Positions 5,048 to 18,987 of a stretch of 64,000 nt of DNA are shown piece after piece. The notes under the pieces were generated by a model. It was not told the DNA's origin, did no database searches, and saw only the letters and a list, made by a program, of their open reading frames with translations. Both the position numbers and the translations under genes were made by a program. Source of the DNA: an uncultured archaeon (GTDB taxonomy: Archaea > Aenigmatarchaeota > Aenigmatarchaeia > Aenigmatarchaeales > Aenigmatarchaeaceae); assembly GCA_964347265.1 (NCBI GenBank), contig CAYFXV010000003.1, positions 3,001 to 67,000 of the forward strand, given 5' to 3'. Numbering within the stretch: the stretch's first letter is position 1; each line of letters opens with the position of its first letter.

Positions 5048-5662
5048 TTATATTTTTGCTAAAGCAAAAGAATATCTCGAATATTCAGCGAACTTGACTA
5101 CCTTTAAACCATATTTTTCTAAAACTTTTTTTAGTTCATTTTTACTCATAGCTTTTTCAAATCCAAAAGGCCATTTATTTATTTTTTCTAAAAACCATTT
5201 AGTTATTCTGTAATACCAAGCCGGCCTTGGAACAGTAATAAGAATATAACCATTTTTCTTAACGCATTTTTTATGTGTCTCAATGATTTTTTTCTGTTTT
5301 TCATTCGAGAAATGTTCTATTAAACCTTCTGAATGAACAATATCAAATTTCTTTTTGGGTTTAAATCTAAGTAAATCTCTACAAAGAATTTTTGCTTTAA
5401 AATTATGCTTTTTAAACTTCTCTTCTGCAAGTTTTAAAGCTTCTTTACTATTATCAAGCACTGTTGCAGAACCTCCATACTTTTTTAATATTTTCAATGT
5501 TAACATACCTGAACCACATCCTAGCTCAATCACATTTGGGTTCTTTAAGTTTAGTGAATCGAGAAGTTTTTGATACATTTTAAAAACTAGTTTACGGTGA
5601 GTTCTCATTGCTAACACAAATAAGAAATTAGTGTTTGACCAGAACGAGTCCCACTTATTCAT
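5048..5662 (-). CDS. Class I SAM-dependent methyltransferase
   Basis: Motif I IELGCGSGMLT. Length 204 aa. The stop abuts the upstream GT2 gene. Confidence 0.75.
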   Translation of the reverse strand: MNKWDSFWSNTNFLFVLAMRTHRKLVFKMYQKLLDSLNLKNPNVIELGCGSGMLTLKILKKYGGSATVLDNSKEALKLAEEKFKKHNFKAKILCRDLLRFKPKKKFDIVHSEGLIEHFSNEKQKKIIETHKKCVKKNGYILITVPRPAWYYRITKWFLEKINKWPFGFEKAMSKNELKKVLEKYGLKVVKFAEYSRYSFALAKI

Positions 5663-6702
5663 TATCTTTCAACTCTATACCACATGAATTCTTTATTTTT
5701 ATTTTCATCTATCCATGATTTTATTATTAAAAACAAATGTATATTACTTAAAATAAACCATACTGGAAGAGCTAAAAGATCTCTAAGTGATTCTTTGAAA
5801 AATATTCTAGAATAGATTAATAGTATCATATTAAATATAAACAAGCCAAGAAAAGGTAAAACAATTATATATGGTAATTGTAAATAAAAAACAATTGCTA
5901 AAATTGTTGCTGTTATTAAACCAAATGGTGGAAAATAAAAATATATTCCATGCATACCGTCTGATAAGATATTTCTTAATCCTCGACGTCTTTTAAATTT
6001 GATTAACCTAACTGTACCCCTAGCCCATCTCAAACGTTGTTTTAAAAATGATTTAATAGAAATTGGCTCCTCCTGCCATGTTATAGCATGTGGCTCAAAG
6101 ACTGTCTTATAATTGTATTTTTTCATTCTAATTGACATTTCTATATCTTCTATAAACGTGAATGTATCAAAACCACTAATTTTTTCAAGAATTTTTTTCC
6201 TTATAAATATATTTTTGCCAAGAAAGTGAGTATTTGCTCCTAAACTACTCAAAAAATATTCTATAAACGATGTAAAACTTGTTTCTAAAGAGATTGCCCT
6301 AGCTACCAAACTTTTATTTTTATTATAAGATCTAATAGTACCAGCAACAGCTGCTATTTTCTTGTCAGAAAAATGTTTTACAGCCTTTTTTAAACAATTT
6401 TTATCAACTATGCAATCTGCATCATAGATTGCTACGATTTCTCCATTTGCTATATGTAAAACTTCATTCAAAGCTTCTGCTTTACATTTTTTTGGTTTTG
6501 ATTCTATAACTTTTATTCTAGGTTCATACTTTTTACATATTTCTAAAGTTTTATCAGTGGAACCATCTATAGAAACTATTATTTCTAACTTATCTTTTGG
6601 ATAATTTGAATTCAAAAGACTTTTTATACAATTTTCTATAACTTTTTCTTCATTCTTTGCTGGAACAATAGCCGAAACACTAGGTAACATAATATTAATC
6701 AA
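5662..6702 (-). CDS. Family 2 glycosyltransferase with a C-terminal membrane domain
   Basis: SAIVPAKNEE start, DGSTD and DAD motifs, C-terminal TM helices. Length 346 aa. Confidence 0.8.
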   Translation of the reverse strand: MINIMLPSVSAIVPAKNEEKVIENCIKSLLNSNYPKDKLEIIVSIDGSTDKTLEICKKYEPRIKVIESKPKKCKAEALNEVLHIANGEIVAIYDADCIVDKNCLKKAVKHFSDKKIAAVAGTIRSYNKNKSLVARAISLETSFTSFIEYFLSSLGANTHFLGKNIFIRKKILEKISGFDTFTFIEDIEMSIRMKKYNYKTVFEPHAITWQEEPISIKSFLKQRLRWARGTVRLIKFKRRRGLRNILSDGMHGIYFYFPPFGLITATILAIVFYLQLPYIIVLPFLGLFIFNMILLIYSRIFFKESLRDLLALPVWFILSNIHLFLIIKSWIDENKNKEFMWYRVER

Positions 6703-7147: not shown

Positions 7148-7450
7148 ATGCCTAGAAAAAAAATAAAGAGAGAACCAACTTGGGATGAAATCGGAGAGGT
7201 CATAGGCAGAAAGATGGAAAAAGAATTCAGGGGATCTAAACGAAGAAAGAAAAACTTCAAATGCGCAGTAAAAGATAGTGTGAGTAGTAGTGGAACTGGA
7301 GGTTGGTTTTACTTTTTGGGATTCATCGCTGCATTGATATATTACATAACTACTGCCCCAACCTTTTGGGATGGAGTTGTAGGATTCTTCAAAGCGATCT
7401 TCTGGCCCGCTTTCCTTGTTTACGGAACAATGGTAACATTAGGATTATAG
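7148..7450 (+). CDS. Small membrane protein with a basic N-terminus (hypothetical)
   Basis: 100 aa: KR-rich N-terminus, two C-terminal TM helices, upstream GAGG SD-like motif. Confidence 0.4.
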   Translation: MPRKKIKREPTWDEIGEVIGRKMEKEFRGSKRRKKNFKCAVKDSVSSSGTGGWFYFLGFIAALIYYITTAPTFWDGVVGFFKAIFWPAFLVYGTMVTLGL

Positions 7451-7528
7451 AAGGATAAAGCAAGTTGTGTTTTTAAAGCAGCCAAATCTTTTTGATTTCC
7501 TTATTTAACTAAATGGCACTGGTAAAGG

Positions 7529-7546
7529 ATCCTCGAGAGGGTTCAT
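7529..7546. repeat. Degenerate copy of the tRNA-Thr 3' end (att-like): GAA-CCCTCTCGAGG on the minus strand
   Basis: Plus-strand cctcgagagggttc at 7531-7544 matches the minus-strand tRNA-Thr 3' end (GAATCCCTCTCGAGGCT) at 14 of 15 positions with a 1-nt deletion, in the same orientation. Confidence 0.5.
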
Positions 7547-7626
7547 CAAACTGGTTGCATAGACTTTCAGCATTCTCATATTTAATAAGTCCCTTATTTT
7601 TTCATCGGTTATTCTGTAAGATAGAA

Positions 7627-7638
7627 AATTATATAAAC
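7627..7638 (+). promoter_or_regulatory. Candidate archaeal TATA box upstream of the giant surface-protein gene
   Basis: ttatataaa lies about 40 nt upstream of the TTG start at 7677. Confidence 0.3.
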
Positions 7639-7676
7639 AGCTTTTTAAATTATATTTTACATAAAGTGGTGTTTTT

Positions 7677-10600
7677 TTGAAAAGAAAATATTTTTTGAGT
7701 ATTTTTATGTTTGTTTTATCAACTTTTCTTATTTCAAGGAGTGCTTCTGCAGCAATCTATTTAAACGCTTACGTTACAGGTTTTACAACGTCTGGAAGTA
7801 ACATAACTATTCAGGGCAATATACAGAATACTACAGTAAGTGATACTATATCAGGTATAAATGTTACAGGCAGTGTTACAGGTAGTTCAAATTCTGGAGT
7901 TACAGGAGCTCCTGGCACATTTAACTTTAATGTCAGTGCACCATCAGCTATAGGCGATTATGATATGACTGTTACAACAAATTCTTCTGCTTTACCAACC
8001 AAAACTATTACAGTTCATATTGGTAATGTTTCAAGCGGTAATATAACATACATTAATAAGAAACCACCATTCGTAGCAGGTAGCACTTTTAACATTAATG
8101 TTACTTTGTTAAATTCAACAGGAGATCCTTTGGTAAATAAAAGTTCTACAGATTTATTAAAAATATTTTCTGCAAATGGCCAAGAAGTTTCTGGATGGAC
8201 TATAACAGCTTTAGATTCTTTATCTGATTCAAATGGGGTTATAAGATATTCAATTGTAATACCGTCAGATGCTGATGGTCCATATATAATTGTTGTTGAA
8301 TATGGTTCTGTATATAGCATTTTCAGTGTTAAATCCAGTTATATAGTTTCTGTTGTTACTCATGATCCTTCTGATGAAAATGAGATTGGTTTTAACTTTG
8401 CTCCTGGTAGTTCTGTAAGTATTTTGGCAAAGGTAAGAGACATTAATGGCAATCCTACAACAGCAACCAGTGTGACAGCATACATAAAGGCTCCGGATAG
8501 TTCAATAACAACTCTTAGTTTAACTGCAAGAGATCAGAACACATATCCTGGTTTTTATAATAATACTTTTACAGCTTCACAGAATGGTAATTATGAGGTC
8601 AGGATCGATGCTGTTGTTGGTAGTTCAACCATTCAGAGTTATACTATGTTTAATACAAAGAGCTTTGCTGTTAGAATAGAATCTGTAAAAGAATTCTTTA
8701 TGGAGTGGGGTGGACAAGCTGCTTTTAAAGCTGGGGATACTGTTGCCTTAAATGTTATTGCAATAAATCTAACAGACGATTCTATAATCCAAAGTCCAAA
8801 CTCACTTAATTGTAGCAATATTACTGTAACAAGCATGTGGAACACAAGTGATAACATCCAATTTACTATTACAAATTCTACTAGCTCAAGTCAATATATG
8901 ATAACTCCTATTTGCAAAATTACTTTTACTGCACCTTCGGTTTCTGGATTATATGGTCTAAGAGCTAATGTAACAATAGGTTCTACAACTGAAATAACAG
9001 AAGGATTCTTTTCCGTTCAAAACTATTTGTTAAAGGCAGCAACTGTTTCTGGAATGGGAGGCGAAATGGACTTTATGCCAATGGCAACCCCAGGGGAAAA
9101 TGCTACTATATCTATAAAAGCATTTAATTTAACTTCAAATGCTGCCATTGATGGTACTCTTATACAAAATATTTCTGTAATAAAAATAATCCCACTTGAG
9201 TTTAAGTTTGGTGCAACTGAAATTACATCTAATATTAATTATACTGTTACTTATGGTTCTAGCCCATATGTTACACTTAACATACCTCAAATAATTAGAG
9301 GACCTGTAATGGTTGAGATTCGGGCAAATATATCAGGAAATATAGTAAGAGGCAGTGCATTTTTTGTTTCTAGTTATGTTTCAGGATTCTTAGGACCTGT
9401 ACAACCTGAAACTGGAGGTGGCCCTGGTCCAGGCGGTGGAGGTGGCCCATCATTTTTATCATGTACAGCAGGTGTATATAATTTTTCTGGAACAGTATAT
9501 GAAACTAAAACAAATAGAGCTGCTAATGGTGTTTCAATTTATTCTATAGCAGAAGTAAGAGAAGAGTTTACAGGCAGAGATGTTTCTGAATATGTTAACT
9601 TATCAGTAACTGGAACAACTGACTCTAATGGAAATGTTAATATAAGTGTAACATTACTTCCAGGATATAATTTCGAAGGTTTCTATTTCATGATTCTTAA
9701 TGTGACTTATAAAGGCAATTATGATGGCGTACCTGCTGGATTCATGTGTAGAAAATTTAACTTTTGGCCAAAAGTCATGTCTATTGGCAGTAATCAAGAT
9801 AACTGGAGAATAGCTCCTGAATCTGGTGTGGTTATTAATGTTGTGAATGCAACTCGTCTTTCAGACAAAAAACTGGTTAATAATCAGACCACGATTTCAT
9901 TAACTAGAATAATGAACTTTAATCCATCAAAAGGCGGCATGAGTCTTTTAGTTAATAACACACCATTAACATTTATTTTTGAACAGACTGGTAATATCAC
10001 TGACCCAACATCAAATAATGTTAGTTTTGTTATTTACCCACAGAACTTTACTTTAGAAGGTAGTGTACTATCAAAATGGCCAAATGGTTTTGTTGAACTA
10101 CAACCAAGGGTTTGTGATTCTACTGTTGGTTGTGATGTATCATTTGGAGGATTTCAAATAGTTCCATTTGATGCTTGGGTTGAGGATTGGCAATGGGGAG
10201 GAACATACTATGCAGGACAGAACATATCTGCAAACATATCTGCAAAAACTAATGTTAGTTCTATAGGTAACTTCACAGTAAAAATAGGAAGGCCTTGGGA
10301 AGGGGAATTACAAACAGCAACAATTATTAATGCAACAAAACTAGAAGATGGTTGGAATAATACAAATGATACAGGAAGGGAATTATGGAATTTAACATTT
10401 ACAATACCTTCTACAATAAGGAAAGGTGGGGCAGAATTAATGATTACAGTTAACTCTTCTGCTAATACAACACCGGGAGAAAAAACTGATCTGCATCTAT
10501 GGTTACAAATTTCAAAATACTCAGTTATAATTCCTTATGAAGAAGGTTTAGGATGGGTAGATGGGTATGCTGTTAATAATACTGAGGCACAACAACAATT

Positions 10601-12119
10601 TGGTTGGAATATGACTTATATTAATGAGACATATAATACTTGGTCTAAAACAGCTGATGGCAGTGTGTGTGCAAAGGATCAATTTAATGTAACAAGATGG
10701 ATGAGCGGATCATCACAAGATGTAGTTTATAACTCTTCAACAAAAGTATTAATAGTTGATAACACAACTGCTGGTATTTATGATACTTTAATATTTAATG
10801 AGAGTGGCACAATAAAAATTGTTGATATCAACAATCGTAATATAACTCCTATAGATGGTTCAGGTTCATTATACCTTTGGAAAATTGATTTTTGCGGTTA
10901 TGTTAGATTAATTAATACATCTACTATTGCTCTTCCGACAGGTGGAAACTGGGGAGGACAATATCAAACCAATAAACAATTTGTTGTTCCATATGTTATT
11001 AAAAAAGCAGACAATTTACAGCCAGGAGTAACAATAAGTGTAAATGGTGTGGCAAAACAAGAATGGGGAGGTTTTGGATTCGAAGAAAAATTAGAAGGAG
11101 AGGAAAATTCAAGTTTAATTGTTCCAATTGGTAAAAATTATACATTTGCTTCTGTTAATACTGATACAAATGGAGTTGCATTTCTAAAAGTTAATATTTC
11201 CCCAAGCGGAAGGTATAATCTATTCTGGAAAATAAACATATCTGGTGATGAAGACATAGCCTCATATGAAAGTGGAACAAATGTAGAAATTAAAAAGTTC
11301 ATGACCAGAGGTGGACCAGCTTATTGGTTGTCCAAAGGTAAAGTTGATCTATACTGGACAAATAACACAATGGGAGAACCAGATGCTCCAGTATGGGGTG
11401 CACACTGTCCTGATCCAGCTGGTTGTGGTGGAAGTGCTTTTGTGCCATTTGTTTACAATGGGACTGTTACTGAAACTGATACATTTGATTTTATTCAAGA
11501 CTCCAATATAACAACACCGTGGTATATTATATGGGCTCCAAATACAAACATGACAAGTATAGACGATGATACTAACATGTCACAGGGCAATGATACAATT
11601 AATGATTATGACTCACTCTATCGTTACATAAACACTAGTTTTGATATTCAATCTACATTTGGTGCAGAGCCAAATACAAGAATTGCTGTGTCCACTTATC
11701 GTAATACTAGCACAGGTCCCACAAATAAAATGACTTTTCTTTTCTATCAACCAGAACCAGAACTTTCACAAATTCAAGAAGTTACAAGCGCAACTGCAAT
11801 TGCCCATGTTAAAATTTGTGCAGAAACATTTGACAAGCCACAACCATTGCCAATAGAAGGAGCAAGTATTGTGTTAAAAGCTGAAAAATTCTTGCCAATG
11901 CAACCACCCACATTAGAATTATTACAGCTTTATGATCCTATTAATGGTAGTGCTGTAAGCAGTGTGTTAACAGGTCCAACAGGTTGTGCTATTGTTAAAG
12001 CAGGTCCGGGAGCCTTAGGCACCTGGCCGATTGGTCAAACTACGTGGATACAAGGCACTATAACAAATGGAACTCAAACAGAAAATGTTTGGGGAGGAGG
12101 AGTTTGGTACTCGGGTTGA
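7677..12119 (+). CDS. Giant secreted surface protein (1480 aa), SlaA-like S-layer/adhesin candidate, heavily N-glycosylation-sequon rich
   Basis: TTG start followed by a textbook signal peptide MKRKYFLSIFMFVLSTFLISRSASA|A. Dozens of N-x-S/T sequons, a Gly-Pro linker (GGGPGPGGGGGP) and no TM anchor. Confidence 0.8.
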   Translation: MKRKYFLSIFMFVLSTFLISRSASAAIYLNAYVTGFTTSGSNITIQGNIQNTTVSDTISGINVTGSVTGSSNSGVTGAPGTFNFNVSAPSAIGDYDMTVTTNSSALPTKTITVHIGNVSSGNITYINKKPPFVAGSTFNINVTLLNSTGDPLVNKSSTDLLKIFSANGQEVSGWTITALDSLSDSNGVIRYSIVIPSDADGPYIIVVEYGSVYSIFSVKSSYIVSVVTHDPSDENEIGFNFAPGSSVSILAKVRDINGNPTTATSVTAYIKAPDSSITTLSLTARDQNTYPGFYNNTFTASQNGNYEVRIDAVVGSSTIQSYTMFNTKSFAVRIESVKEFFMEWGGQAAFKAGDTVALNVIAINLTDDSIIQSPNSLNCSNITVTSMWNTSDNIQFTITNSTSSSQYMITPICKITFTAPSVSGLYGLRANVTIGSTTEITEGFFSVQNYLLKAATVSGMGGEMDFMPMATPGENATISIKAFNLTSNAAIDGTLIQNISVIKIIPLEFKFGATEITSNINYTVTYGSSPYVTLNIPQIIRGPVMVEIRANISGNIVRGSAFFVSSYVSGFLGPVQPETGGGPGPGGGGGPSFLSCTAGVYNFSGTVYETKTNRAANGVSIYSIAEVREEFTGRDVSEYVNLSVTGTTDSNGNVNISVTLLPGYNFEGFYFMILNVTYKGNYDGVPAGFMCRKFNFWPKVMSIGSNQDNWRIAPESGVVINVVNATRLSDKKLVNNQTTISLTRIMNFNPSKGGMSLLVNNTPLTFIFEQTGNITDPTSNNVSFVIYPQNFTLEGSVLSKWPNGFVELQPRVCDSTVGCDVSFGGFQIVPFDAWVEDWQWGGTYYAGQNISANISAKTNVSSIGNFTVKIGRPWEGELQTATIINATKLEDGWNNTNDTGRELWNLTFTIPSTIRKGGAELMITVNSSANTTPGEKTDLHLWLQISKYSVIIPYEEGLGWVDGYAVNNTEAQQQFGWNMTYINETYNTWSKTADGSVCAKDQFNVTRWMSGSSQDVVYNSSTKVLIVDNTTAGIYDTLIFNESGTIKIVDINNRNITPIDGSGSLYLWKIDFCGYVRLINTSTIALPTGGNWGGQYQTNKQFVVPYVIKKADNLQPGVTISVNGVAKQEWGGFGFEEKLEGEENSSLIVPIGKNYTFASVNTDTNGVAFLKVNISPSGRYNLFWKINISGDEDIASYESGTNVEIKKFMTRGGPAYWLSKGKVDLYWTNNTMGEPDAPVWGAHCPDPAGCGGSAFVPFVYNGTVTETDTFDFIQDSNITTPWYIIWAPNTNMTSIDDDTNMSQGNDTINDYDSLYRYINTSFDIQSTFGAEPNTRIAVSTYRNTSTGPTNKMTFLFYQPEPELSQIQEVTSATAIAHVKICAETFDKPQPLPIEGASIVLKAEKFLPMQPPTLELLQLYDPINGSAVSSVLTGPTGCAIVKAGPGALGTWPIGQTTWIQGTITNGTQTENVWGGGVWYSG

Positions 12120-12124
12120 TTTTA

Positions 12125-13657
12125 ATGAACAAAATTTTATTCTTATTAATAATCATAACTTTTCTAGTTTTTACAATACCTGTTTTGGCAACAATAACAG
12201 ATGTATCAACTAGTGCTTCTGTAACAAGAGCAACTACAGGAACAAATGTGGTAGTATCCGTTACTACAACATCAAGCGAAAGTGATACAGCTGATATTCG
12301 TTTGATAGCTCCGTCAGAAATTTCAATTTCTGATCCTTCTGCTCAATATTATCCAAGTGTTTCTGTTACAGGACAGGTAACAAAACCCTTCACAATAACA
12401 GCGGGAACGTCAGGAACTTATAGTAATATTTATGGTCAGGCAACACCTACTGGCCAATCTCCTGTTTCTTCAACACCAATAACAATAGTGTTTGAAGATC
12501 CCAGTGCACTTACTGTTTCTGGATCTCCAAGCTCTACTACAAAAAGTCGCAGCGAATCTTTCACATTATCAATTACAATTTCTAATCCTCAGGCAAATGA
12601 TATAACAACATATTATGCTTTAACCTGTCCTTCAGAAATTAGCTGTAGCGGAGATCTTACATCTAATACAATTACTGTTAGTTCAAGTTCTTCAACAAAT
12701 CTTCAATGGACAGCTACAGTATCTTCGTTAGCAACAGCTGGTGCAAAAACAATAAGTTTTCAATTAGGTGATGCAACAAATGCATTTACAACAACTGTTA
12801 CTGTTTCTGTTCCTTCAGATTCTCCTGGTGGTTCTGGAGCTATTATTGGAGGTGGACCAGTAACCAAAGTTACAGTATCAAAAGGAAATGCAAATATAAC
12901 AATTCCATCAATAGCAGCTAATAAAACAGCAGTTGTTTCAATAACAAAAACAGAAGATGTTGCATTTAGACAGATTAATATTTCTGTTGCAAATTCTGTT
13001 AACAATATAAAAATAGTTATCACTAAAATACCGGGTTTGCCGGCATCTGTAACTCATGAAATTTCTGGAAAAATTTATCATTATATTGAGATTAATAAAG
13101 AAAATATAACTGATGTAAATGTTAACAAAATTTATATTAAATTTGCTGTTAATAAAACGTGGTTAACAGATAACAATGTTGATGCTTTAAACATTGCCCT
13201 TTATAGATGGAATAATGGCCAGTGGAATGAATTAGAAACTGACTATGTTAGTGAAGACGTTTCCGAAGTGTTTTATCAGGCAGAATCTCCTGGATTCTCC
13301 TATTTCTTAATTGGAACCAAAGGAGGTGCACCTGCTGCGCCTACTGGAGCAGCTATTGCCTGCAAAGAAAGTTGGTCTTGTACAGGTTGGTCTTCATGTA
13401 TCAACAACCAACAAACAAGAACATGTACAGATTCAAACAACTGTGGAACAACTGTTAAAAAGCCTGCTGAATCACAAATATGCGAAGTAGGAAAAGCAGA
13501 ATTCGGAATTACAATAACTTCTATTTTAACTTATTTAGCAATAATTGTTATAGCAATAGTAATTTGTGTTTTCATTTTCTTACAAAGAGCTAAAATAAGT
13601 GGTTTTTTGAGAAGTTCAAATAAAAGCACAAAAAAAAAGAATAAAAAAGGAACTTAG
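12125..13657 (+). CDS. Thr/Ser-rich secreted protein with a C-terminal TM anchor (510 aa), SlaB-like partner of the upstream giant protein
   Basis: ATG lies 5 nt after the upstream stop. Signal peptide MNKILFLLIIITFLVFTIPVLA; T/S-rich; Cys-rich module CKESWSCTGWSSC...C...C; C-terminal TM ILTYLAIIVIAIVICVFIFL plus a KKKNKKGT tail. Confidence 0.75.
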   Translation: MNKILFLLIIITFLVFTIPVLATITDVSTSASVTRATTGTNVVVSVTTTSSESDTADIRLIAPSEISISDPSAQYYPSVSVTGQVTKPFTITAGTSGTYSNIYGQATPTGQSPVSSTPITIVFEDPSALTVSGSPSSTTKSRSESFTLSITISNPQANDITTYYALTCPSEISCSGDLTSNTITVSSSSSTNLQWTATVSSLATAGAKTISFQLGDATNAFTTTVTVSVPSDSPGGSGAIIGGGPVTKVTVSKGNANITIPSIAANKTAVVSITKTEDVAFRQINISVANSVNNIKIVITKIPGLPASVTHEISGKIYHYIEINKENITDVNVNKIYIKFAVNKTWLTDNNVDALNIALYRWNNGQWNELETDYVSEDVSEVFYQAESPGFSYFLIGTKGGAPAAPTGAAIACKESWSCTGWSSCINNQQTRTCTDSNNCGTTVKKPAESQICEVGKAEFGITITSILTYLAIIVIAIVICVFIFLQRAKISGFLRSSNKSTKKKNKKGT

Positions 13658-13728
13658 TAAAGAAATCGAAGAAATTGAATAACTCTTAAATCCTCATTTC
13701 TGCTCCCTGCTAATTTGTGAAGAAAATT

Positions 13729-13741
13729 AGCCTCGAGAGGG
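13729..13741. repeat. 13-nt exact copy of the tRNA-Thr 3' end (CCCTCTCGAGGCT on the minus strand), att-like
   Basis: Plus-strand agcctcgagaggg is identical to the T-stem 3' strand plus acceptor 3' strand plus discriminator of tRNA-Thr (17078-17090), in the same orientation. It is followed on the minus strand by an oligo-T run. Confidence 0.55.
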
Positions 13742-13839
13742 GCTCTAATAAAAAAGACAACCTGCGGTTTTCTTCTTTAATCATCTTTCCCTTCATGACT
13801 TATCTAACTCCCTTTTTCGAAAAGCAAGTAATGTTTAAT

Positions 13840-13959
13840 TCAAATATCACGTCCAGTCGCTTGGTATGTATGAAGCTTCCAACCTTTATTTTGCCATTCA
13901 GAAATTGTTTTACCGACATCTCCATGATTACCAAGTTGCACACACATAAACTCTTTCAT
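13840..13959 (-). CDS. Unlisted 39-aa small protein (MKEFMCVQLGNHGDVGKTISEWQNKGWKLHTYQATGRDI)
   Basis: ATG preceded by a GGAGGT SD. Followed on the minus strand by a hairpin plus T-run terminator-like sequence at about 13715-13760. Confidence 0.25.
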   Translation of the reverse strand: MKEFMCVQLGNHGDVGKTISEWQNKGWKLHTYQATGRDI

Positions 13960-13996
13960 TTTTATACCTCCATTATTTTTACATAACAACACTTCT

Positions 13997-14413
13997 CTAA
14001 TTCTTATTGATAATAAATATAGGATTTACTTCTATCTCCTTTACTTTAACAATTTCTATATATCTTTTAGAGTCCCTTTTCTTAAGTTTATTTTTAAGGT
14101 CTTCAAAATCAGAAACAACCTCTTTTTTAGGAATTTTTATTTTGTTTTTTGTAAAGCTTTTTTCAATTTTTCTTTTATTAAATTTATAACATCTTTTTTC
14201 AGATTCTTCCAAAACATAAAGAAGATAAGTGTTAACAGCAGCAACAGGATTCTTATGGGTTTTAAATTTATTTAATTGGGGGTGATTTCTCCAACCTTTG
14301 GTTTTACCTTTAAGCACTTTTCTAGCTAGTAAGGTTTCTCTCCATAATGCAACTAATCCTTTACAATCTAGATATTTGGGGTGAACAATCCAAACTCTCA
14401 TGTTTTTCTCCAA
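13997..14413 (-). CDS. Pyrimidine-dimer DNA glycosylase-like protein (Pyr_excise-like)
   Basis: The N-terminus MRVWIVHPKYLDCKGLVALWRETLLARKVLKGKTKGWRNHPQL matches the family signature (WxxHPKYLD..GLVAxWRE.LLA..VL.G.T.GY.NHPQL) as recalled. Length 138 aa. Confidence 0.5.
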   Translation of the reverse strand: MEKNMRVWIVHPKYLDCKGLVALWRETLLARKVLKGKTKGWRNHPQLNKFKTHKNPVAAVNTYLLYVLEESEKRCYKFNKRKIEKSFTKNKIKIPKKEVVSDFEDLKNKLKKRDSKRYIEIVKVKEIEVNPIFIINKN

Positions 14414-15135
14414 TAATCTTTATTTCTATCTTCCTCGACATCAGCTACTAGTCCTTCAGGATATATGTTGAAGAATGTTTTTTCAAGTAACCTCTTATCA
14501 TTTATTAATATCTTAGAAACTTCTTTTAAAGTCTCAAAACTTATCCTATTTTTCTTGTATTTCTCTAGTATTTGTTCTTTTTCTCCAATAAGTTTTCTGA
14601 AAAATATATATATTTCTTCACTAGATGGAGGTTTTGACATTATCTGTTTAATTATTTCAAAATAATCTTTTTTACTGATGTCCAATTTTTTTGATAGTTT
14701 TGAATTATAAAATTCAAATATTAATTTATTTTTTTCTTGAAATTCCTCTAACCTATTTAGTTTTACCGCATTTCTATATCTTGCAAATAAAAATAATTTT
14801 GTTAGAAAATGTTCTCTTATTTTTTTGTTTCTTAATCTATCATCCTCTTCAATTGGATACCCTTTATATATTTCTGCAATCCTGCTTGCAAAAAATCCTC
14901 CGCATTTATCAATAACTGGAGAGCCTTTCATTCCAGAATAAACTTTAATTCCGGTAATTCCCATAGTTGGAGATTTTGATTTGAATATGAATCCATCAAC
15001 ATCTTTTAATCCATTTATGAATTTTTGTGAAAAACTATTAATATCATCTGTAACATCTCTGTTGGTTTTGTGTTGTATTAGTCTGTATTCATTTCCTACC
15101 TTAACAATCCGTATGGGTTCTCTTGGCACCCCCAA
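14398..15135 (-). CDS. Hypothetical protein (245 aa), overlapping and co-transcribed with the glycosylase-like gene
   Basis: 16-nt overlap with the downstream gene. No recognisable motif. Confidence 0.45.
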   Translation of the reverse strand: MGVPREPIRIVKVGNEYRLIQHKTNRDVTDDINSFSQKFINGLKDVDGFIFKSKSPTMGITGIKVYSGMKGSPVIDKCGGFFASRIAEIYKGYPIEEDDRLRNKKIREHFLTKLFLFARYRNAVKLNRLEEFQEKNKLIFEFYNSKLSKKLDISKKDYFEIIKQIMSKPPSSEEIYIFFRKLIGEKEQILEKYKKNRISFETLKEVSKILINDKRLLEKTFFNIYPEGLVADVEEDRNKDYWRKT

Positions 15136-15301
15136 GCCTATCTCGTATTCAGGGCATACTTTTATGAATTCTACAAAAGGTTTTAAATCCCTAATAATTT
15201 TTGATGGAATAGACTGTCCATTGTATCTGACTTTTTCAAATTCTAGACATGCACTAATCAGTAATATCGGTCTTATTATGTTATCACCATTTCTTTCATA
15301 T

Positions 15302-15958
15302 TTATCGCTTTTTTCTTTTCTTAATAAATCTAAAAATAATATACACTATAGCAATTATTACAACGATTATTACAACTAAAAACAATCCAATTAAGTTAAA
15401 GAATGCAGTATAAGCTGGTTTCCCGAAAAATTCCTCTTTTAGTCTAGGAAGAGTTATTATTGTATTTATGAATTCATCCAAAGGAAATTCCTCTTTTTCT
15501 CCTACTACAAGAACATATTTTCCATCATTATCTTGACTGAAAACTTCAATAATATAAATTCCTTTTTCTGCAGTTGTTTTAAGTTCGGGTCCTTGATAAT
15601 ATGAATCTCCTCCAAATTCTTCATAATAATATGTCCACTCATAATCTGTGCCATTAAGAAAATATTCGATTTCTTCGTGTTCTTCTTCATGCTCATGCTC
15701 TAATATAATTTTAACAGAAACATCCTTATCTATATCTTTAATATCTGGAACCAAAATTCCAAAATAAAGATTAAATTGTTTATCGGAATTAATTTGATAA
15801 TAATCAGAATTTCCTTTAAGATTACCATAAAAAGCTTGAGAAACCTCGGGGTTTCTAATTAAAGTAAATTGTTCAGAAACTAATCTAGGTTGATGAGCAA
15901 AAACAATATCTGAAATAAATAGTAAAAAAATTAAAGACAATAAAAAGAATCTTTTCAT
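15302..15958 (-). CDS. Secreted His/Glu-rich protein with a C-terminal TM anchor (218 aa)
   Basis: Signal peptide MKRFFLLSLIFLLFISDIVFA, an HEHEEEHEE metal-binding-like stretch, and a C-terminal TM plus RFIKKRKKR. Confidence 0.55.
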   Translation of the reverse strand: MKRFFLLSLIFLLFISDIVFAHQPRLVSEQFTLIRNPEVSQAFYGNLKGNSDYYQINSDKQFNLYFGILVPDIKDIDKDVSVKIILEHEHEEEHEEIEYFLNGTDYEWTYYYEEFGGDSYYQGPELKTTAEKGIYIIEVFSQDNDGKYVLVVGEKEEFPLDEFINTIITLPRLKEEFFGKPAYTAFFNLIGLFLVVIIVVIIAIVYIIFRFIKKRKKR

Positions 15959-16012
15959 ATTTAGAGTTTTGTTTTAAAGTTTAAAAATATAGTAAAATCA
16001 GGATTTAGGGGT

Positions 16013-16579
16013 TTATTTTTGAACTTGTCTACACTCATTATCTATACACTTTATTGTCAAGTGACCTGCTATTCCAGTGCAAAAATCAGGACATTGCTTG
16101 CTTTCATCAACATATTTTTCGTTTCCATAAAAACAATCTCCTGTCCTTATATGAACTCCGCAACTGCAGTCTGCATCAACATTGCAATATTTTTCTTCTG
16201 TAACTTCAGAACAATCGCCTTCTAGATAAAATGCAACATTCGGGTTCATGCAAGCAAAACAAGAATTCGAATAGGTTCTTGCATCATTGCCGCAAACTGG
16301 TTTGTATATCTCTATGCATGCATCGACGTTTCTGGATTCATCCGAACATTTGTATCTTGTTCTGTTTGTGTCGTAAGGAAAGCATGGATTGGGCTGTATA
16401 ATATTTCCATTATCGTCAGTATAGGTACAACCTCCTCCAATGTGTCCTGGAATACAGTCTATGCAAATAGCTTCTGGTTGTTTGGAGGTATTAATATAAA
16501 ATGCAATTAATATCAAAACTATTAGTATAAACAAAAGCATTTCAATATTTTTAATCATTTTTTCACTATTTTTTTTCAT
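16013..16579 (-). CDS. Cys-rich secreted/anchored protein with a Kazal-type inhibitor-like domain
   Basis: YKPVCGNDARTYSNSCFAC matches the Kazal core (PVCG.DG.TY.N.C..C), and 22 Cys in all. The ORF track starts at TTG 16588; the ATG at 16579 gives MKKNSEKMIKNIEM plus an N-terminal TM/signal. Confidence 0.6.
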   Translation of the reverse strand: MKKNSEKMIKNIEMLLFILIVLILIAFYINTSKQPEAICIDCIPGHIGGGCTYTDDNGNIIQPNPCFPYDTNRTRYKCSDESRNVDACIEIYKPVCGNDARTYSNSCFACMNPNVAFYLEGDCSEVTEEKYCNVDADCSCGVHIRTGDCFYGNEKYVDESKQCPDFCTGIAGHLTIKCIDNECRQVQK

Positions 16580-16742
16580 TAAAACCAATAAAAAAAAACC
16601 CGATTCCTAAAATAAACGAAACGAGCGCAAACATAAATGGAAAAAAAGCATCAAATTTTAGGAAATAAGGAATTACGAAAAATGCAATAGACACTATAAT
16701 CAATATACTTCCAACAGCAAGACTATAAGTACGTTTATTCAT
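16566..16742 (-). CDS. Unlisted 58-aa membrane mini-protein
   Basis: MNKRTYSLAVGSILIIVSIAFFVIPYFLKFDAFFPFMFALVSFILGIGFFFIGFNEKK has two predicted TM segments. It overlaps the start of the Kazal-like gene. Confidence 0.25.
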   Translation of the reverse strand: MNKRTYSLAVGSILIIVSIAFFVIPYFLKFDAFFPFMFALVSFILGIGFFFIGFNEKK

Positions 16743-17077
16743 TATATTTATTTTGTAAATTAAACTTTATAAATTTTCTAGCTTAGAAAATGTCATATAT
16801 ATTTTTCATGGTGTTATTTTTATCTAGGTAGAGAAAATTTATTATTCTTTTATTTTCCATTTTGTTTTTATATAATTTGCCATTGTTTTGGCTAATTTTC
16901 TTGTTCTGGTTAGTCTATGAATATCTTTACCTTCTGCTGAACAAGTTTCACAAAAACGTAATAATTTATCTTCTATATATTCATCTATTTTCATTCTTGG
17001 TTTTCCCATGTCTAAAATATAGAAAAGCTAGAACAAAAATCTATCTTATTCTGAAGTTTAAAAATATTAAAATATTG

Positions 17078-17199
17078 AGCCTCGAGAGGGATTCGAACCC
17101 TCGACCTACTGCTTACATGCCCTCATTGCGGTAACTCCTTGAGACCAAAAAAATCATTGGGATACAAGGCAGTCGCTCTACCAGCTGAGCTATCGAGGC
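17078..17199 (-). tRNA. tRNA-Thr (UGU) with a 49-nt intron at position 37/38
   Basis: Reverse complement: GCCTCGA acceptor, GCTC-AGCTGGTA-GAGC D-arm, anticodon stem ACTGC/GCAGT with loop CTTGTA[intron]A, T-arm GAGGG-TTCGAAT-CCCTC. Mature length 73 nt. Confidence 0.75.
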
Positions 17200-17239: not shown

Positions 17240-17917
17240 ATGGGAATATCAGTTGTAGTCTGCGCTAAAAATGAGGAAAAATACATAGAAGATTGTTTGA
17301 AATATTTAAAAAATCAAACTTTAAAACCAGAAATAGTAGTAGTAGATGGCCATTCAACTGATAAAACTTTTTCTATAGCAAAAAAGTATGCTGATAAGGT
17401 TGTTAAAGACAATAAAAAAGGAATTGGAGATGCAAGAAATTTGGGTTGGAAAACTGCTAGAGAAGACATAGTAGCTTATTGTGATGCAGATTGTTTACCA
17501 CCAAAAAACTGGGTAGAAAAAATATCAAAACTTATGAAGAATAACATATGCATTTCTGGTCCACTTTATCCTTATGACGGAGACAGTTTAATGAAAATAC
17601 ATTTTAAAGTATGGACGAATCTTGTCACCAGGTTTTTCTCTTCATTAGGTTTTCACTACATTTGGGGACCCAACATGATCTTTAAAAAACATATTCTTAA
17701 AAAACATTCTTTTAGAGTAAATTTTTTAGAAGACTATGAACTATCTAAAAGAATTAGAAGAGTTGGTAAAATAAAAATTTTAAAAGATATCACAATGCCT
17801 GTATCTATTAGACATCTTAAACATGGTTTTTTCTTAAGTGTATTAAAATACTATGGTTCAAACTACCTTAGAATAAAATTAAAACGAAAACAAAAAATTG
17901 GAGATTATTGGAAATAA
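17240..17917 (+). CDS. Family 2 glycosyltransferase (soluble, 225 aa)
   Basis: ISVVVCAKNEEKYIEDCL, VDGHSTD and CDAD motifs typical of GT2. Confidence 0.75.
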   Translation: MGISVVVCAKNEEKYIEDCLKYLKNQTLKPEIVVVDGHSTDKTFSIAKKYADKVVKDNKKGIGDARNLGWKTAREDIVAYCDADCLPPKNWVEKISKLMKNNICISGPLYPYDGDSLMKIHFKVWTNLVTRFFSSLGFHYIWGPNMIFKKHILKKHSFRVNFLEDYELSKRIRRVGKIKILKDITMPVSIRHLKHGFFLSVLKYYGSNYLRIKLKRKQKIGDYWK

Positions 17918-17919
17918 TA

Positions 17920-18026
17920 TGTCGGTGGCGGGATTTGAACCCACGACCTCCGGATTTCATATCATCTTTAAATCAAATCTCATAGATTTTATGAGACCGG
18001 CGCTCCAACCACTGAGCTACACCGAC
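17920..18026 (-). tRNA. tRNA-Met, elongator type (CAU), with a ~34-nt intron
   Basis: Reverse complement: GTCGGTG acceptor (G1-C72), D-arm GCTC-AGTGGTTG-GAGC, anticodon stem CCGGT with loop CTCATA[intron]A, T-arm GTGGG-TTCAAAT-CCCGC. The 31:39 pair is mismatched or wobbled. Confidence 0.7.
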
Positions 18027-18065
18027 TTATTATAATAATAGAATATTAACTTTTTATTTAAAAAA

Positions 18066-18182
18066 TGGGCCCGGTGGGTCTCGAACCCACGACTTCCAGG
18101 TTTCTTCCTGTCATCGCGAAAGCTCAACATGCTTTTATCAACAGATAAAAGCCTGGCACTCTACCAACTGAGTTACGGGCCC
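18066..18182 (-). tRNA. tRNA-Lys (UUU) with a ~44-nt intron
   Basis: Reverse complement: GGGCCCG acceptor, D-arm ACTC-AGTTGGTA-GAGT, anticodon stem CCAGG/CCTGG with loop CTTTTA[intron]A, T-arm GTGGG-TTCGAGA-CCCAC, discriminator A. Confidence 0.75.
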
Positions 18183-18185
18183 AAG

Positions 18186-18257
18186 CGCCCCGGCTGGGAT
18201 TCGAACCCAGGTCACAAGCTCGACAGGCTCGTATACTAACCACTATACTACCGAGGC
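18186..18257 (-). tRNA. tRNA-Asp (GUC), intron-less
   Basis: Reverse complement GCCTCGGTAGTATAGTGGTTAGTATACGAGCCTGTCGAGCTTGTGACCTGGGTTCGAATCCCAGCCGGGGCG. The anticodon loop CTGTCGA gives GUC and the discriminator is G. The D-stem has G-U pairs. Confidence 0.6.
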
Positions 18258-18308
18258 ATATCTATTCTTTTATTTACAATTATATTTAAATACTTTCCAG
18301 AAAATTAG

Positions 18309-18427
18309 TGGTTGCCAACTTTCTGAGCTTCCCATCTTTTCGATAGTACAACCCAGACCGATGAGACGATTCACTACCGTGTTCGAAATGGGAACGGGTC
18401 TTACCATCTCTCTTTGATCGGCAACCA
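18309..18427 (-). rRNA. rrf: 5S ribosomal RNA (stand-alone, not linked to 16S/23S)
   Basis: The reverse complement begins GGTTGCCGATC... and ends ...GTTGGCAACC (helix I). It contains CCCGTTCCCATTTCGAACACGGTAGT, matching the conserved 5S loop B / helix III region. Length about 119 nt. Confidence 0.65.
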
Positions 18428-18493
18428 TTCATTAGTTAATTATTAAATATATTTAAAGGTTTCATTTTTAAGTAGGCTAAATAATTATATAAT

Positions 18494-18868
18494 ATGCTAG
18501 AAAACAAGAAATTAAAAATTTGGCAATGGCTTTTACTACTTTTAATAGGATTCTTATTTCCGATCTATAATATTTTAATAAACAACTTTCTTTTGTTTTT
18601 TAATTTGCAATTAATTTATTATATTATTTCAGTTATGGTATCAACTATTATTTTTTCTTTAGTCCTTTTCCTTATATTTAATTATTTTAGAAAGAGGACA
18701 AAATTTGAAAAAAGAATAGATACTGCTTTTATGCTTTATGTTTTATCTGTTAGTTTTGGTTGTTTTTTCACTGAAAGAACAGGAGGAATTGGAATTTTTG
18801 TATTTCCATTTTTAATAGCATACTATTTAGAAATAAAGAAAATTCTTAATGAGTTCCCAAGAGAATAA
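18494..18868 (+). CDS. Hypothetical polytopic membrane protein (124 aa)
   Basis: Three hydrophobic helices. Sits between the 5S rRNA and tRNA-Tyr. Confidence 0.4.
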   Translation: MLENKKLKIWQWLLLLLIGFLFPIYNILINNFLLFFNLQLIYYIISVMVSTIIFSLVLFLIFNYFRKRTKFEKRIDTAFMLYVLSVSFGCFFTERTGGIGIFVFPFLIAYYLEIKKILNEFPRE

Positions 18869-18873
18869 AATTA

Positions 18874-18987
18874 TCCCGACTGAGGGATTCGCACCCTCAA
18901 CCTATCGGTTTCTGAGCAATTGCTGAGTGAGCAATACTATAAAGTAAAACTCTACAGCCGATCGCTCTACTGTTGAGCTAAGTCGGG
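18874..18987 (-). tRNA. tRNA-Tyr (GUA) with a ~42-nt intron and the archaeal/eukaryal C1-G72 identity pair
   Basis: Reverse complement: acceptor CCCGACT/AGTCGGG (C1-G72), D-arm GCTC-AACAGTA-GAGC, anticodon stem ATCGG/CCGAT with loop CTGTA(G)[intron]A(A), T-arm GAGGG-TGCGAAT-CCCTC, discriminator A. Confidence 0.7.

Follow-up and report, generated by a model that had tools for sequence, protein, structure and literature searches.

In a 64,000-nt stretch of a metagenome-assembled genome (MAG) of an Aenigmatarchaeota member, a DPANN archaeon (the whole stretch is hereafter the window; its positions serve as coordinates, and it matches a contig of assembly GCA_011772535.1 without any difference), the 3′ end of a tRNA-Thr(UGU) gene recurs twice, and its copies delimit two adjacent islands, a proximal one at 13742–17077 and a distal one at 7542–13728. 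We consider it likely that this tRNA 3′ end has served as attB for integration of the tyrosine-recombinase type and that two successive events took place in the window. The older event would have brought in segment 7542–13728 with an S-layer-like gene pair, and the younger one segment 13742–17077 with an ultraviolet (UV)-damage module (a TudS-like protein and a pyrimidine-dimer glycosylase) and small secreted and membrane proteins, an order and timing that we infer. Each integration would rebuild the tRNA end from the incoming DNA and shift the earlier tRNA-end copy, with the DNA behind it, further downstream. The evidence for site-specific integration is good for the proximal island; for the S-layer island such integration is plausible, though less firm. 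A first-pass annotation had proposed att-type scars of successive integrations at this site, and the proposal is now supported by conserved flanks, by tRNA-end copies in relatives, by a recombinase fragment and by a rearranged junction in a close relative.

Three copies of the tRNA-Thr 3′ end

The tRNA-Thr(UGU) gene (17078–17199, minus strand; 62 bits in Rfam) is one of eight RNA genes that Rfam identifies in the window. ARAGORN in its default bacterial mode missed this intron-containing gene, and tRNA calling was therefore based on Rfam and on ARAGORN with introns allowed (aragorn -i), the sequence also being read directly. The intron is 49 nt long (17114–17162) and occupies the canonical 37/38 position. 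For comparison, about 40 related loci (designated by L-numbers) were fetched using the tRNA-adjacent GT2 glycosyltransferase gene as anchor; the 37/38 intron is absent from tRNA-Thr in the closest relatives L001, L081, L082 and L084, and tRNA-Thr introns in the clade of L003 are 12–14 nt long and differ in position from that of the window.

The last 13 nt of the gene, CCCTCTCGAGGCT (17078–17090, minus strand), comprise the T-stem 3′ strand, the acceptor 3′ strand and the discriminator, and represent the attL-type core. As the first-pass annotation had noted, this 13-mer recurs exactly at 13729–13741 (minus strand; 13/13), the match with the tRNA 3′ end reaching 17/20 when extended, and this internal copy is plausibly both the attR of the proximal island and the former tRNA end beside the S-layer island. 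A distal copy, CCCTCTCGAGGAT, lies at 7529–7541 (minus strand) and matches at 12 of the 13 positions, with one mismatch. The degenerate form described earlier, in which GAA precedes the core with a 1-nt deletion, is indeed present, its span being 7531–7544 rather than 7531–7546. All three copies are on the tRNA-Thr strand and both extra ones are downstream of the tRNA 3′ end, in agreement with the initial description.

No further copy of CCCTCTCGAGGCT with up to two mismatches exists on either strand of the window. Chance origin had been judged very unlikely and our estimates bear this out, with 0.19 copies of the 13-mer expected and three matches reached in none of 100 dinucleotide shuffles. 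The six other tRNAs of the window served as a control: their 3′ 13-mers gave no comparable copies except for one match with two mismatches. An explanation by chance matches or by a functional motif, regulatory or a terminator hairpin, with the islands as ordinary gene neighbourhoods, could point to the palindrome CTCGAG within the core and to the location of the internal copy between convergent genes, but it is effectively refuted and has a negligible probability, given the shuffles, the lack of copies elsewhere in the window or for other tRNAs, and the finding (below) that practically all copies in relatives lie on the 3′ side of the tRNA. Neither copy was called as a terminator-like site, and fold z-scores were unremarkable (−1.1 to +2.6).

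The tRNA-Thr site and a permuted island in related genomes

The two islands lie between a gene for a 100-aa membrane protein on the left (7148–7450, plus strand; identified by tblastn and blastn, with 90% aa identity in L084) and one for a GT2 glycosyltransferase on the right (17240–17917, plus strand; Pfam 5e-27, and present in related loci). The arrangement of tRNA-Thr(UGU) followed by GT2 is kept in about 30 of the approximately 40 related loci, and the left flank (methyltransferase and GT2 genes, with the 100-aa membrane protein gene in the closest relatives) is also kept in several. Between these conserved flanks the DNA differs in every lineage, the left flank and the tRNA being 1.1 kb apart in L082 and L089, 2.3 kb in L084, 3–5 kb in L003, L086, L091, L093 and L095, and 10.4 kb in the window. 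L084 and L082 (82% GT2 identity) align with the window up to 7462–7471 and again from the tRNA onwards, with unrelated DNA in between, so that homology is lost 58–70 nt short of the distal copy and regained at the tRNA. The comparison with related genomes 3′ of tRNA-Thr that the first-pass annotation had called for thus found the islands absent and the content between the flanks variable: none of the island genes of the window occurs at this site in any related locus fetched, and those of the proximal island in particular are absent from the tRNA-Thr site of L001, L082 and L084.

When each related locus was searched with its own tRNA 3′ 13-mer, 13 copies were found downstream on the tRNA strand and none upstream, together with one poor match on the opposite strand. 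The counterpart of the distal copy in L084, AGCTTCGAGAGGGATT, is nearer to the tRNA of the window than to that of L084 itself, and in both the copy is located 73–79 nt after the 100-aa gene; a copy in L082 lies 67 nt after this gene, its orthology being uncertain. In the clade of L003, L091, L093, L095 and L099, a conserved distal copy, CTTTCGAGGCTCACTTCAC, follows EamA genes, and the islands between it and the tRNA measure 0.47, 1.15, 1.9 or 1.2 plus 0.9 kb. L091 has two tandem mini-islands, one with a TATA-binding protein gene and a 71-aa open reading frame (ORF) and the other with an inositol monophosphatase gene, which are split by tRNA-end copies. The trailer of the internal copy in L091, TTCCTAAA, is identical to that of the tRNA in L100, L101 and L108, as predicted by sequential integration. 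The trailer of the internal copy in the window, AATTTTCTTCAC, resembles the integrase-side tRNA trailer CATTTTCTTAAC of L003, L093 and L106, which in L003 and L093 leads into an integrase fragment.

Other arrangements were also observed at this site. The TATA-binding protein and inositol monophosphatase genes of L091 (7764–9887) are of housekeeping type, each in a cassette-like segment of about 1 kb. In L106, 18 nt of the tRNA-Thr 3′ end are repeated (6245–6262) only 19 nt beyond the tRNA, preceded by the trailer CATTTTCTTAG, found on the integrase side in L003; the repeat resembles what would remain after nearly all of an island had been deleted. In L001 (5757–6631), L089 (1902–2942) and L102 (2443–3450), relatives that have no tRNA-end copies, the neighbour at the tRNA-Thr 3′ end is an abutting, convergent radical-SAM/SPASM gene, and this may be the unoccupied ancestral arrangement.

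The proximal island reappears as a whole, at about 90–92% nt identity and in rotated order, in L174, a close relative (approximately 91% nt identity). Segment A (the last 11 nt of tRNA-Thr, the trailer, the 55- and 58-aa ORFs and a Kazal-like gene) corresponds to L174 4367–5467 and window 17088–15988; segment B (a 218-aa gene) to L174 1569–2270 and window 15991–15290; and segment C (the TudS and pyrimidine-dimer glycosylase genes, a small ORF and a gene relic) to L174 2865–4338 and window 15250–13776, as established by nucleotide alignment. An extra TspO gene, absent from the window, follows segment B in L174. The order is thus tRNA-A-B-C-core in the window versus B-C-core-A in L174, and the attP predicted from the window (attR left arm, core and attL right arm) aligns end-to-end with L174 4250–4470. 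To judge by this alignment, the L174 junction has the attL/attR/attP geometry to be expected if a circle had integrated through the core CTCTCGAGGCT, a conclusion that applies to the proximal island only. The tRNA-Thr core was not found in the TudS loci L175–L177, the one further copy being the attP-like core in L174.

The permuted block in L174 is associated with a different tRNA gene. It lies 1.1 kb downstream of a tRNA-Asn(GTT) gene (3–76), exactly between two same-strand copies of the tRNA-Asn 3′ 13-mer (1180–1192 and 5493–5505; one and two mismatches), a number of copies reached in none of 200 shuffles. These copies bound first a 335-aa gene, whose product has no Pfam or PHROGs match, and then the permuted block, and so make up a second tRNA-anchored array. 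Because the L174 block is located between Asn-end copies, one and the same integrase-less block is found at tRNA-Thr in the window and in a tRNA-Asn array in L174.

These data also bear on the possibility that the region is a variable cell-envelope locus, comparable to those for O-antigen or capsule, in which homologous recombination between the flanks after DNA uptake exchanges the content and the tRNA-end copies are old, unrelated scars. Such swapping would suit the conserved flanks with their many glycosyltransferases and methyltransferases, the native codon composition of the islands, the absence of an integrase, and a distal copy that is old and has kept its position. It leaves unexplained, however, the exact internal copy at 13729, the circular permutation in L174 with its attP-like junction and tRNA-Asn-end boundaries, and the strict bias of strand and side of the copies across loci, and we therefore regard it as unlikely.

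Recombinase, island contents and composition

The reported absence of an integrase was confirmed: none of the island ORFs has a Phage_integrase match in Pfam, and a hidden Markov model of the family detected no integrase in the six frames of the 64-kb window at E ≤ 1, nor any in L174. Since neither segment encodes one, they would be decayed remnants or non-autonomous blocks moved in trans. In three relatives (L003, L093 and L094), tRNA-Thr is immediately followed, on its own strand, by a 154–201-aa ORF for a truncated tyrosine recombinase, with the catalytic C-terminal part (HxxR present) and a C-terminal zinc ribbon. More than 180 relatives of this fragment occur in databases, many of them of 300–350 aa, and this zinc-ribbon tyrosine recombinase family would be the best candidate for the enzyme. 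Circularising the islands of L003, L093, L095 and L091 in silico restored no integrase ORF, which marks the fragment as decayed and not as part of a split gene of SSV type; nor were Int(N)/Int(C) halves found, the window being without integrase sequence. Two full-length relatives were inspected, in L164 (between tRNA-Arg and tRNA-Leu) and L165, and no tRNA-end repeats were found, so that the link of the family to the site is indirect.

Shuffling among tRNA loci independent of any such integrase, through tRNA-end microhomologies or off-target action of a chromosomal Xer-type recombinase and with no mobile element involved, would be consistent with the host-like cargo, the lack of an integrase in cis and the fact that the differences between the window and L174 at the junction of segments A and B fall in T-rich microhomologies, and it is possible for individual steps. 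As a general explanation we find it very unlikely: it does not account for the origin of direct, always-downstream tRNA-end copies, it is at odds with the integrase fragment beside tRNA-Thr in L003, L093 and L094, and the overall pattern is the classical attL/attR/attP geometry.

The proximal island, delineated from its ORFs, Pfam matches and the comparison with L174, has seven ORFs, all on the tRNA (minus) strand: a 55-aa ORF next to tRNA-Thr with no match to a Pfam or PHROGs family, a 58-aa membrane protein, a Kazal-like Cys-rich secreted protein (Kazal_1, 3e-8), a His/Glu-rich protein of 218 aa with a signal peptide and a C-terminal anchor, a TudS/DUF1722-like protein, a pyrimidine-dimer DNA glycosylase (Pyr_excise, 9e-22) and a 39-aa ORF. 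This is the gene content of the first-pass annotation with the addition of the TudS (2-thiouracil desulfurase, DUF523)–DUF1722-like gene at 14398–15342 (minus strand; Pfam 8e-15, translation and comparison with L174), which had been overlooked. That gene has no ATG, GTG or TTG at its true N-terminus, and its public annotation starts at ATT; 594 nt of L174, with the TspO gene and the TudS start, correspond to just 39 nt in the window (15251–15289). The sequence would fit a decaying copy, or one that may use a non-canonical start. In addition, the small ORF at 13840–13992 (minus strand), annotated as 39 aa, has a premature stop where L174 reads on to 62 aa (…GRDIWIKHYLLFEKGS), and the 93-aa gene and Asn-type core of L174 are both missing from the window. 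The window copy of the block thus appears to be the more decayed of the two.

A further vestige, at 13765–13797 (minus strand), is the 3′ end of a gene for a 187-aa protein (..EGKDD stop), recognised from its translation and from 29–32 nt at 100% identity to L084 and L083. In those two loci the gene, encoding a helix-turn-helix (HTH)/Cys-rich protein, adjoins tRNA-Thr, and the identity with the window extends over 32 nt (13765–13796). The 3′-end motif occurs at L084 2243–2271, L083 620–651, L082 33–60 and L174 4318–4338; it precedes the att core by about 30 nt in the window and in L174, and in L082 it lies between the att copy and the left flank. The relic may be what is left of a DNA-binding factor that an element encoded; in L084, the 187-aa protein has no match in Pfam, PHROGs or PDB sequences. 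Among viral contigs (IMG/VR), a search with the island genes retrieved distant phage pyrimidine-dimer glycosylases only; neither the 218-aa protein nor the 187-aa protein of L084 had a match there, nor did the pattern of att core plus trailer.

The distal island contains two genes only, both on the plus strand; L082 and L084 have the same flanks but not this island. The first (7677–12119) encodes a 1480-aa secreted glycoprotein-like product with a signal peptide and many N-X-S/T sequons, and the second (12104–13657) a 517-aa partner with a C-terminal anchor. That a pair described as SlaA/SlaB-like fills this island holds in so far as these are its only genes, the label itself being an analogy without a sequence match: phmmer found no relevant match to any PDB sequence, an MG2 domain match scores under the Pfam cut-off, and the likeness to SlaA/SlaB of Sulfolobales is one of architecture only (a large secreted protein that is conserved together with a smaller partner anchored at its C-terminus). 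Full-length homologous pairs occur in distant lineages, at loci of 37–54% GC and with 35–44% identity. Most sit in a cluster formed by an Mrr-like gene, the pair, an HTH_11 gene, a 65-aa ORF and a giant CarboxypepD_reg protein. This cluster was seen in L160, L163 and L172/L173, the Mrr-like protein being a nuclease and the CarboxypepD_reg protein measuring 2100–2500 aa; L162 has part of it, with the Mrr-like and HTH_11 genes upstream of the pair, and the Mrr-like/HTH_11/CarboxypepD_reg context is missing around the pair in the window.

The first-pass annotation had held that the same genes in related genomes without tRNA linkage would speak against the islands. Such a state was found for the S-layer homologues, yet it does not refute the islands, since these pairs are only 35–44% identical and come from genomes of 37–54% GC. 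No tRNA gene was present in the four homologue loci scanned (two with full 10-kb flanks and one nearly full), the tRNA-Thr core was not found in the homologue loci, and no convincing direct repeats flank the pairs in other genomes, where a single 11-mer was noted in L172 (a locus of 54% GC). These loci neither prove nor refute acquisition. The tRNA-proximal end of the distal island does resemble the integrase-side junction of L003-type elements. In the claim that integrated elements delivered the cell-surface genes, the att-type scars are well founded, and the S-layer-like pair itself may have arrived by this route.

Several observations weigh against integration at the tRNA as the origin of the islands. 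The shared core is only 11–13 nt long, with similarity extending to 16–20 nt, and every comparison sequence is a MAG or metagenome contig. An exact empty site (attB joined to the outer flank of the S-layer island) was not recovered for either island, and three contigs with identical GT2 genes displayed no excision polymorphism. The islands, the window and L174 contain no integrase or other mobility gene. Profiling of GC and codon usage, suggested earlier as a means to set the islands apart from flanking genes, revealed no contrast and no compositional signal in GC or in GC at third codon positions (GC3), the GC3 of island genes being native (0.14–0.26, against a window mean of 0.185 ± 0.045); the higher GC of 7.5–13.7 kb stems from the amino-acid make-up of the S-layer-like genes and not from GC3. 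Orthologues of TudS are graded (90, 84, 81, 76% and so on), the one at 90% being that of L174, and occur in ordinary chromosomal contexts. Finally, the L174 copy is itself chromosomal and ends in Asn-type rather than Thr-type sequences, and the history of the island must therefore have involved more than one simple event.

Neither foreign composition nor hallmark genes of mobile elements were thus detected, the single PHROGs match being that of the TudS-like gene to a family of unknown function. Because the orthologues of the TudS and pyrimidine-dimer glycosylase cargo in relatives are graded and vertical-looking and GC3 is native, the islands look like shuffled host-type blocks and not like foreign viruses or plasmids. 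A more specific scheme, to our minds unlikely, is a form of cassette shuffling comparable to that of tycheposons, CIMEs (see below) or integrons, in which small integrase-less host-type blocks, each with at least one tRNA-end core for docking, are excised as circles and re-inserted at tRNA-Thr or tRNA-Asn by a zinc-ribbon tyrosine recombinase acting in trans; the blocks so shuffled may include UV-repair modules, TATA-binding protein, inositol monophosphatase, regulators and even the S-layer pair.

Two further observations concern neighbouring and related genes. The TudS-like gene is always beside a gene for a UV-damage enzyme in L174–L179, often with TspO nearby, and the partner varies, being pyrimidine-dimer glycosylase in the window and L174–L177, photolyase in L177 and UvdE in L178/L179. 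Next to the right flank of the islands, at 17920–18987 (minus strand), the window has a dense cluster of RNA genes (tRNA-Ser, an intron-containing tRNA that ARAGORN miscalls as 'Stop(tta)', tRNA-Asp, 5S rRNA and tRNA-Tyr), and introns are present in most tRNAs of this cluster.

Relation to known integrated elements and significance

The islands are tRNA-linked tandem islands, a kind already known, here without an integrase gene. In Crenarchaeota, integration of SSV and pNOB8 type at tRNA genes was reportedly described by She et al. Archaeal att sites can be as short as 8 bp (8–26 bp in mesophilic archaea), with arrays arising by re-use of one site, and a survey of Thaumarchaeota recorded 'cryptic integrated elements' and tandem arrays at tRNA genes (PMC6563490). 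Like these archaeal elements, the islands display direct repeats of the 3′ part of a tRNA, re-use of the site that produces tandem arrangements, and decay to short att scars. They differ in having no integrase, replication or virion genes, in their host-type cargo of native composition, in their DPANN host, in lacking split Int(N)/Int(C) halves and in the occurrence of both Thr-type and Asn-type cores on one block.

Partial tRNAs also separate successive, often degenerate elements in tRNA-proximal islands of Prochlorococcus (bioRxiv 10.1101/2020.12.28.424599). With these tycheposons the islands share older elements pushed outward, fragmented integrases, stray partial tRNAs and adaptive host-type cargo; tycheposons are bacterial, however, and active ones carry their own tyrosine recombinase and a replication module, neither of which is seen here. 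Cis-mobilisable elements (CIMEs) at the ICESt-family sites of Streptococcus are att-flanked and devoid of recombination genes, and accretion with, or movement in trans by, an integrase-bearing element has been proposed for them. They resemble the islands as att-bounded DNA without an integrase, but are bacterial and tied to conjugative elements, and a protein-coding gene, fda, provides their site at its 3′ end. Integron cassette arrays and CALINs (clusters of attC sites lacking integron integrases) are likewise small, promoter-poor, recombinase-less blocks between short sites, comparable to the mini-islands of 0.5–1.2 kb in L091 and L095, whereas here there is no IntI and no structured site of the attC type, the sites being tRNA-derived 11–13-mers without significant fold.

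Islands linked to tRNA genes are classic, yet there is hardly any record of them in DPANN archaea, where loss is thought to be the main mode by which the tiny genomes evolve. In the present case, one tRNA gene anchors a hypervariable region throughout a clade, a region that may hold the main envelope genes of the organism, and two close relatives have one integrase-less block in common, docked at a different tRNA in each. If such blocks are mobilised in trans, they would provide a route for the exchange of surface-antigen and stress genes in episymbiotic archaea, and if cassettes are indeed shuffled, symbionts with reduced genomes could swap surface and stress genes. Copies of tRNA ends would then also be a practical marker for islands of this sort in MAGs that lack an integrase.

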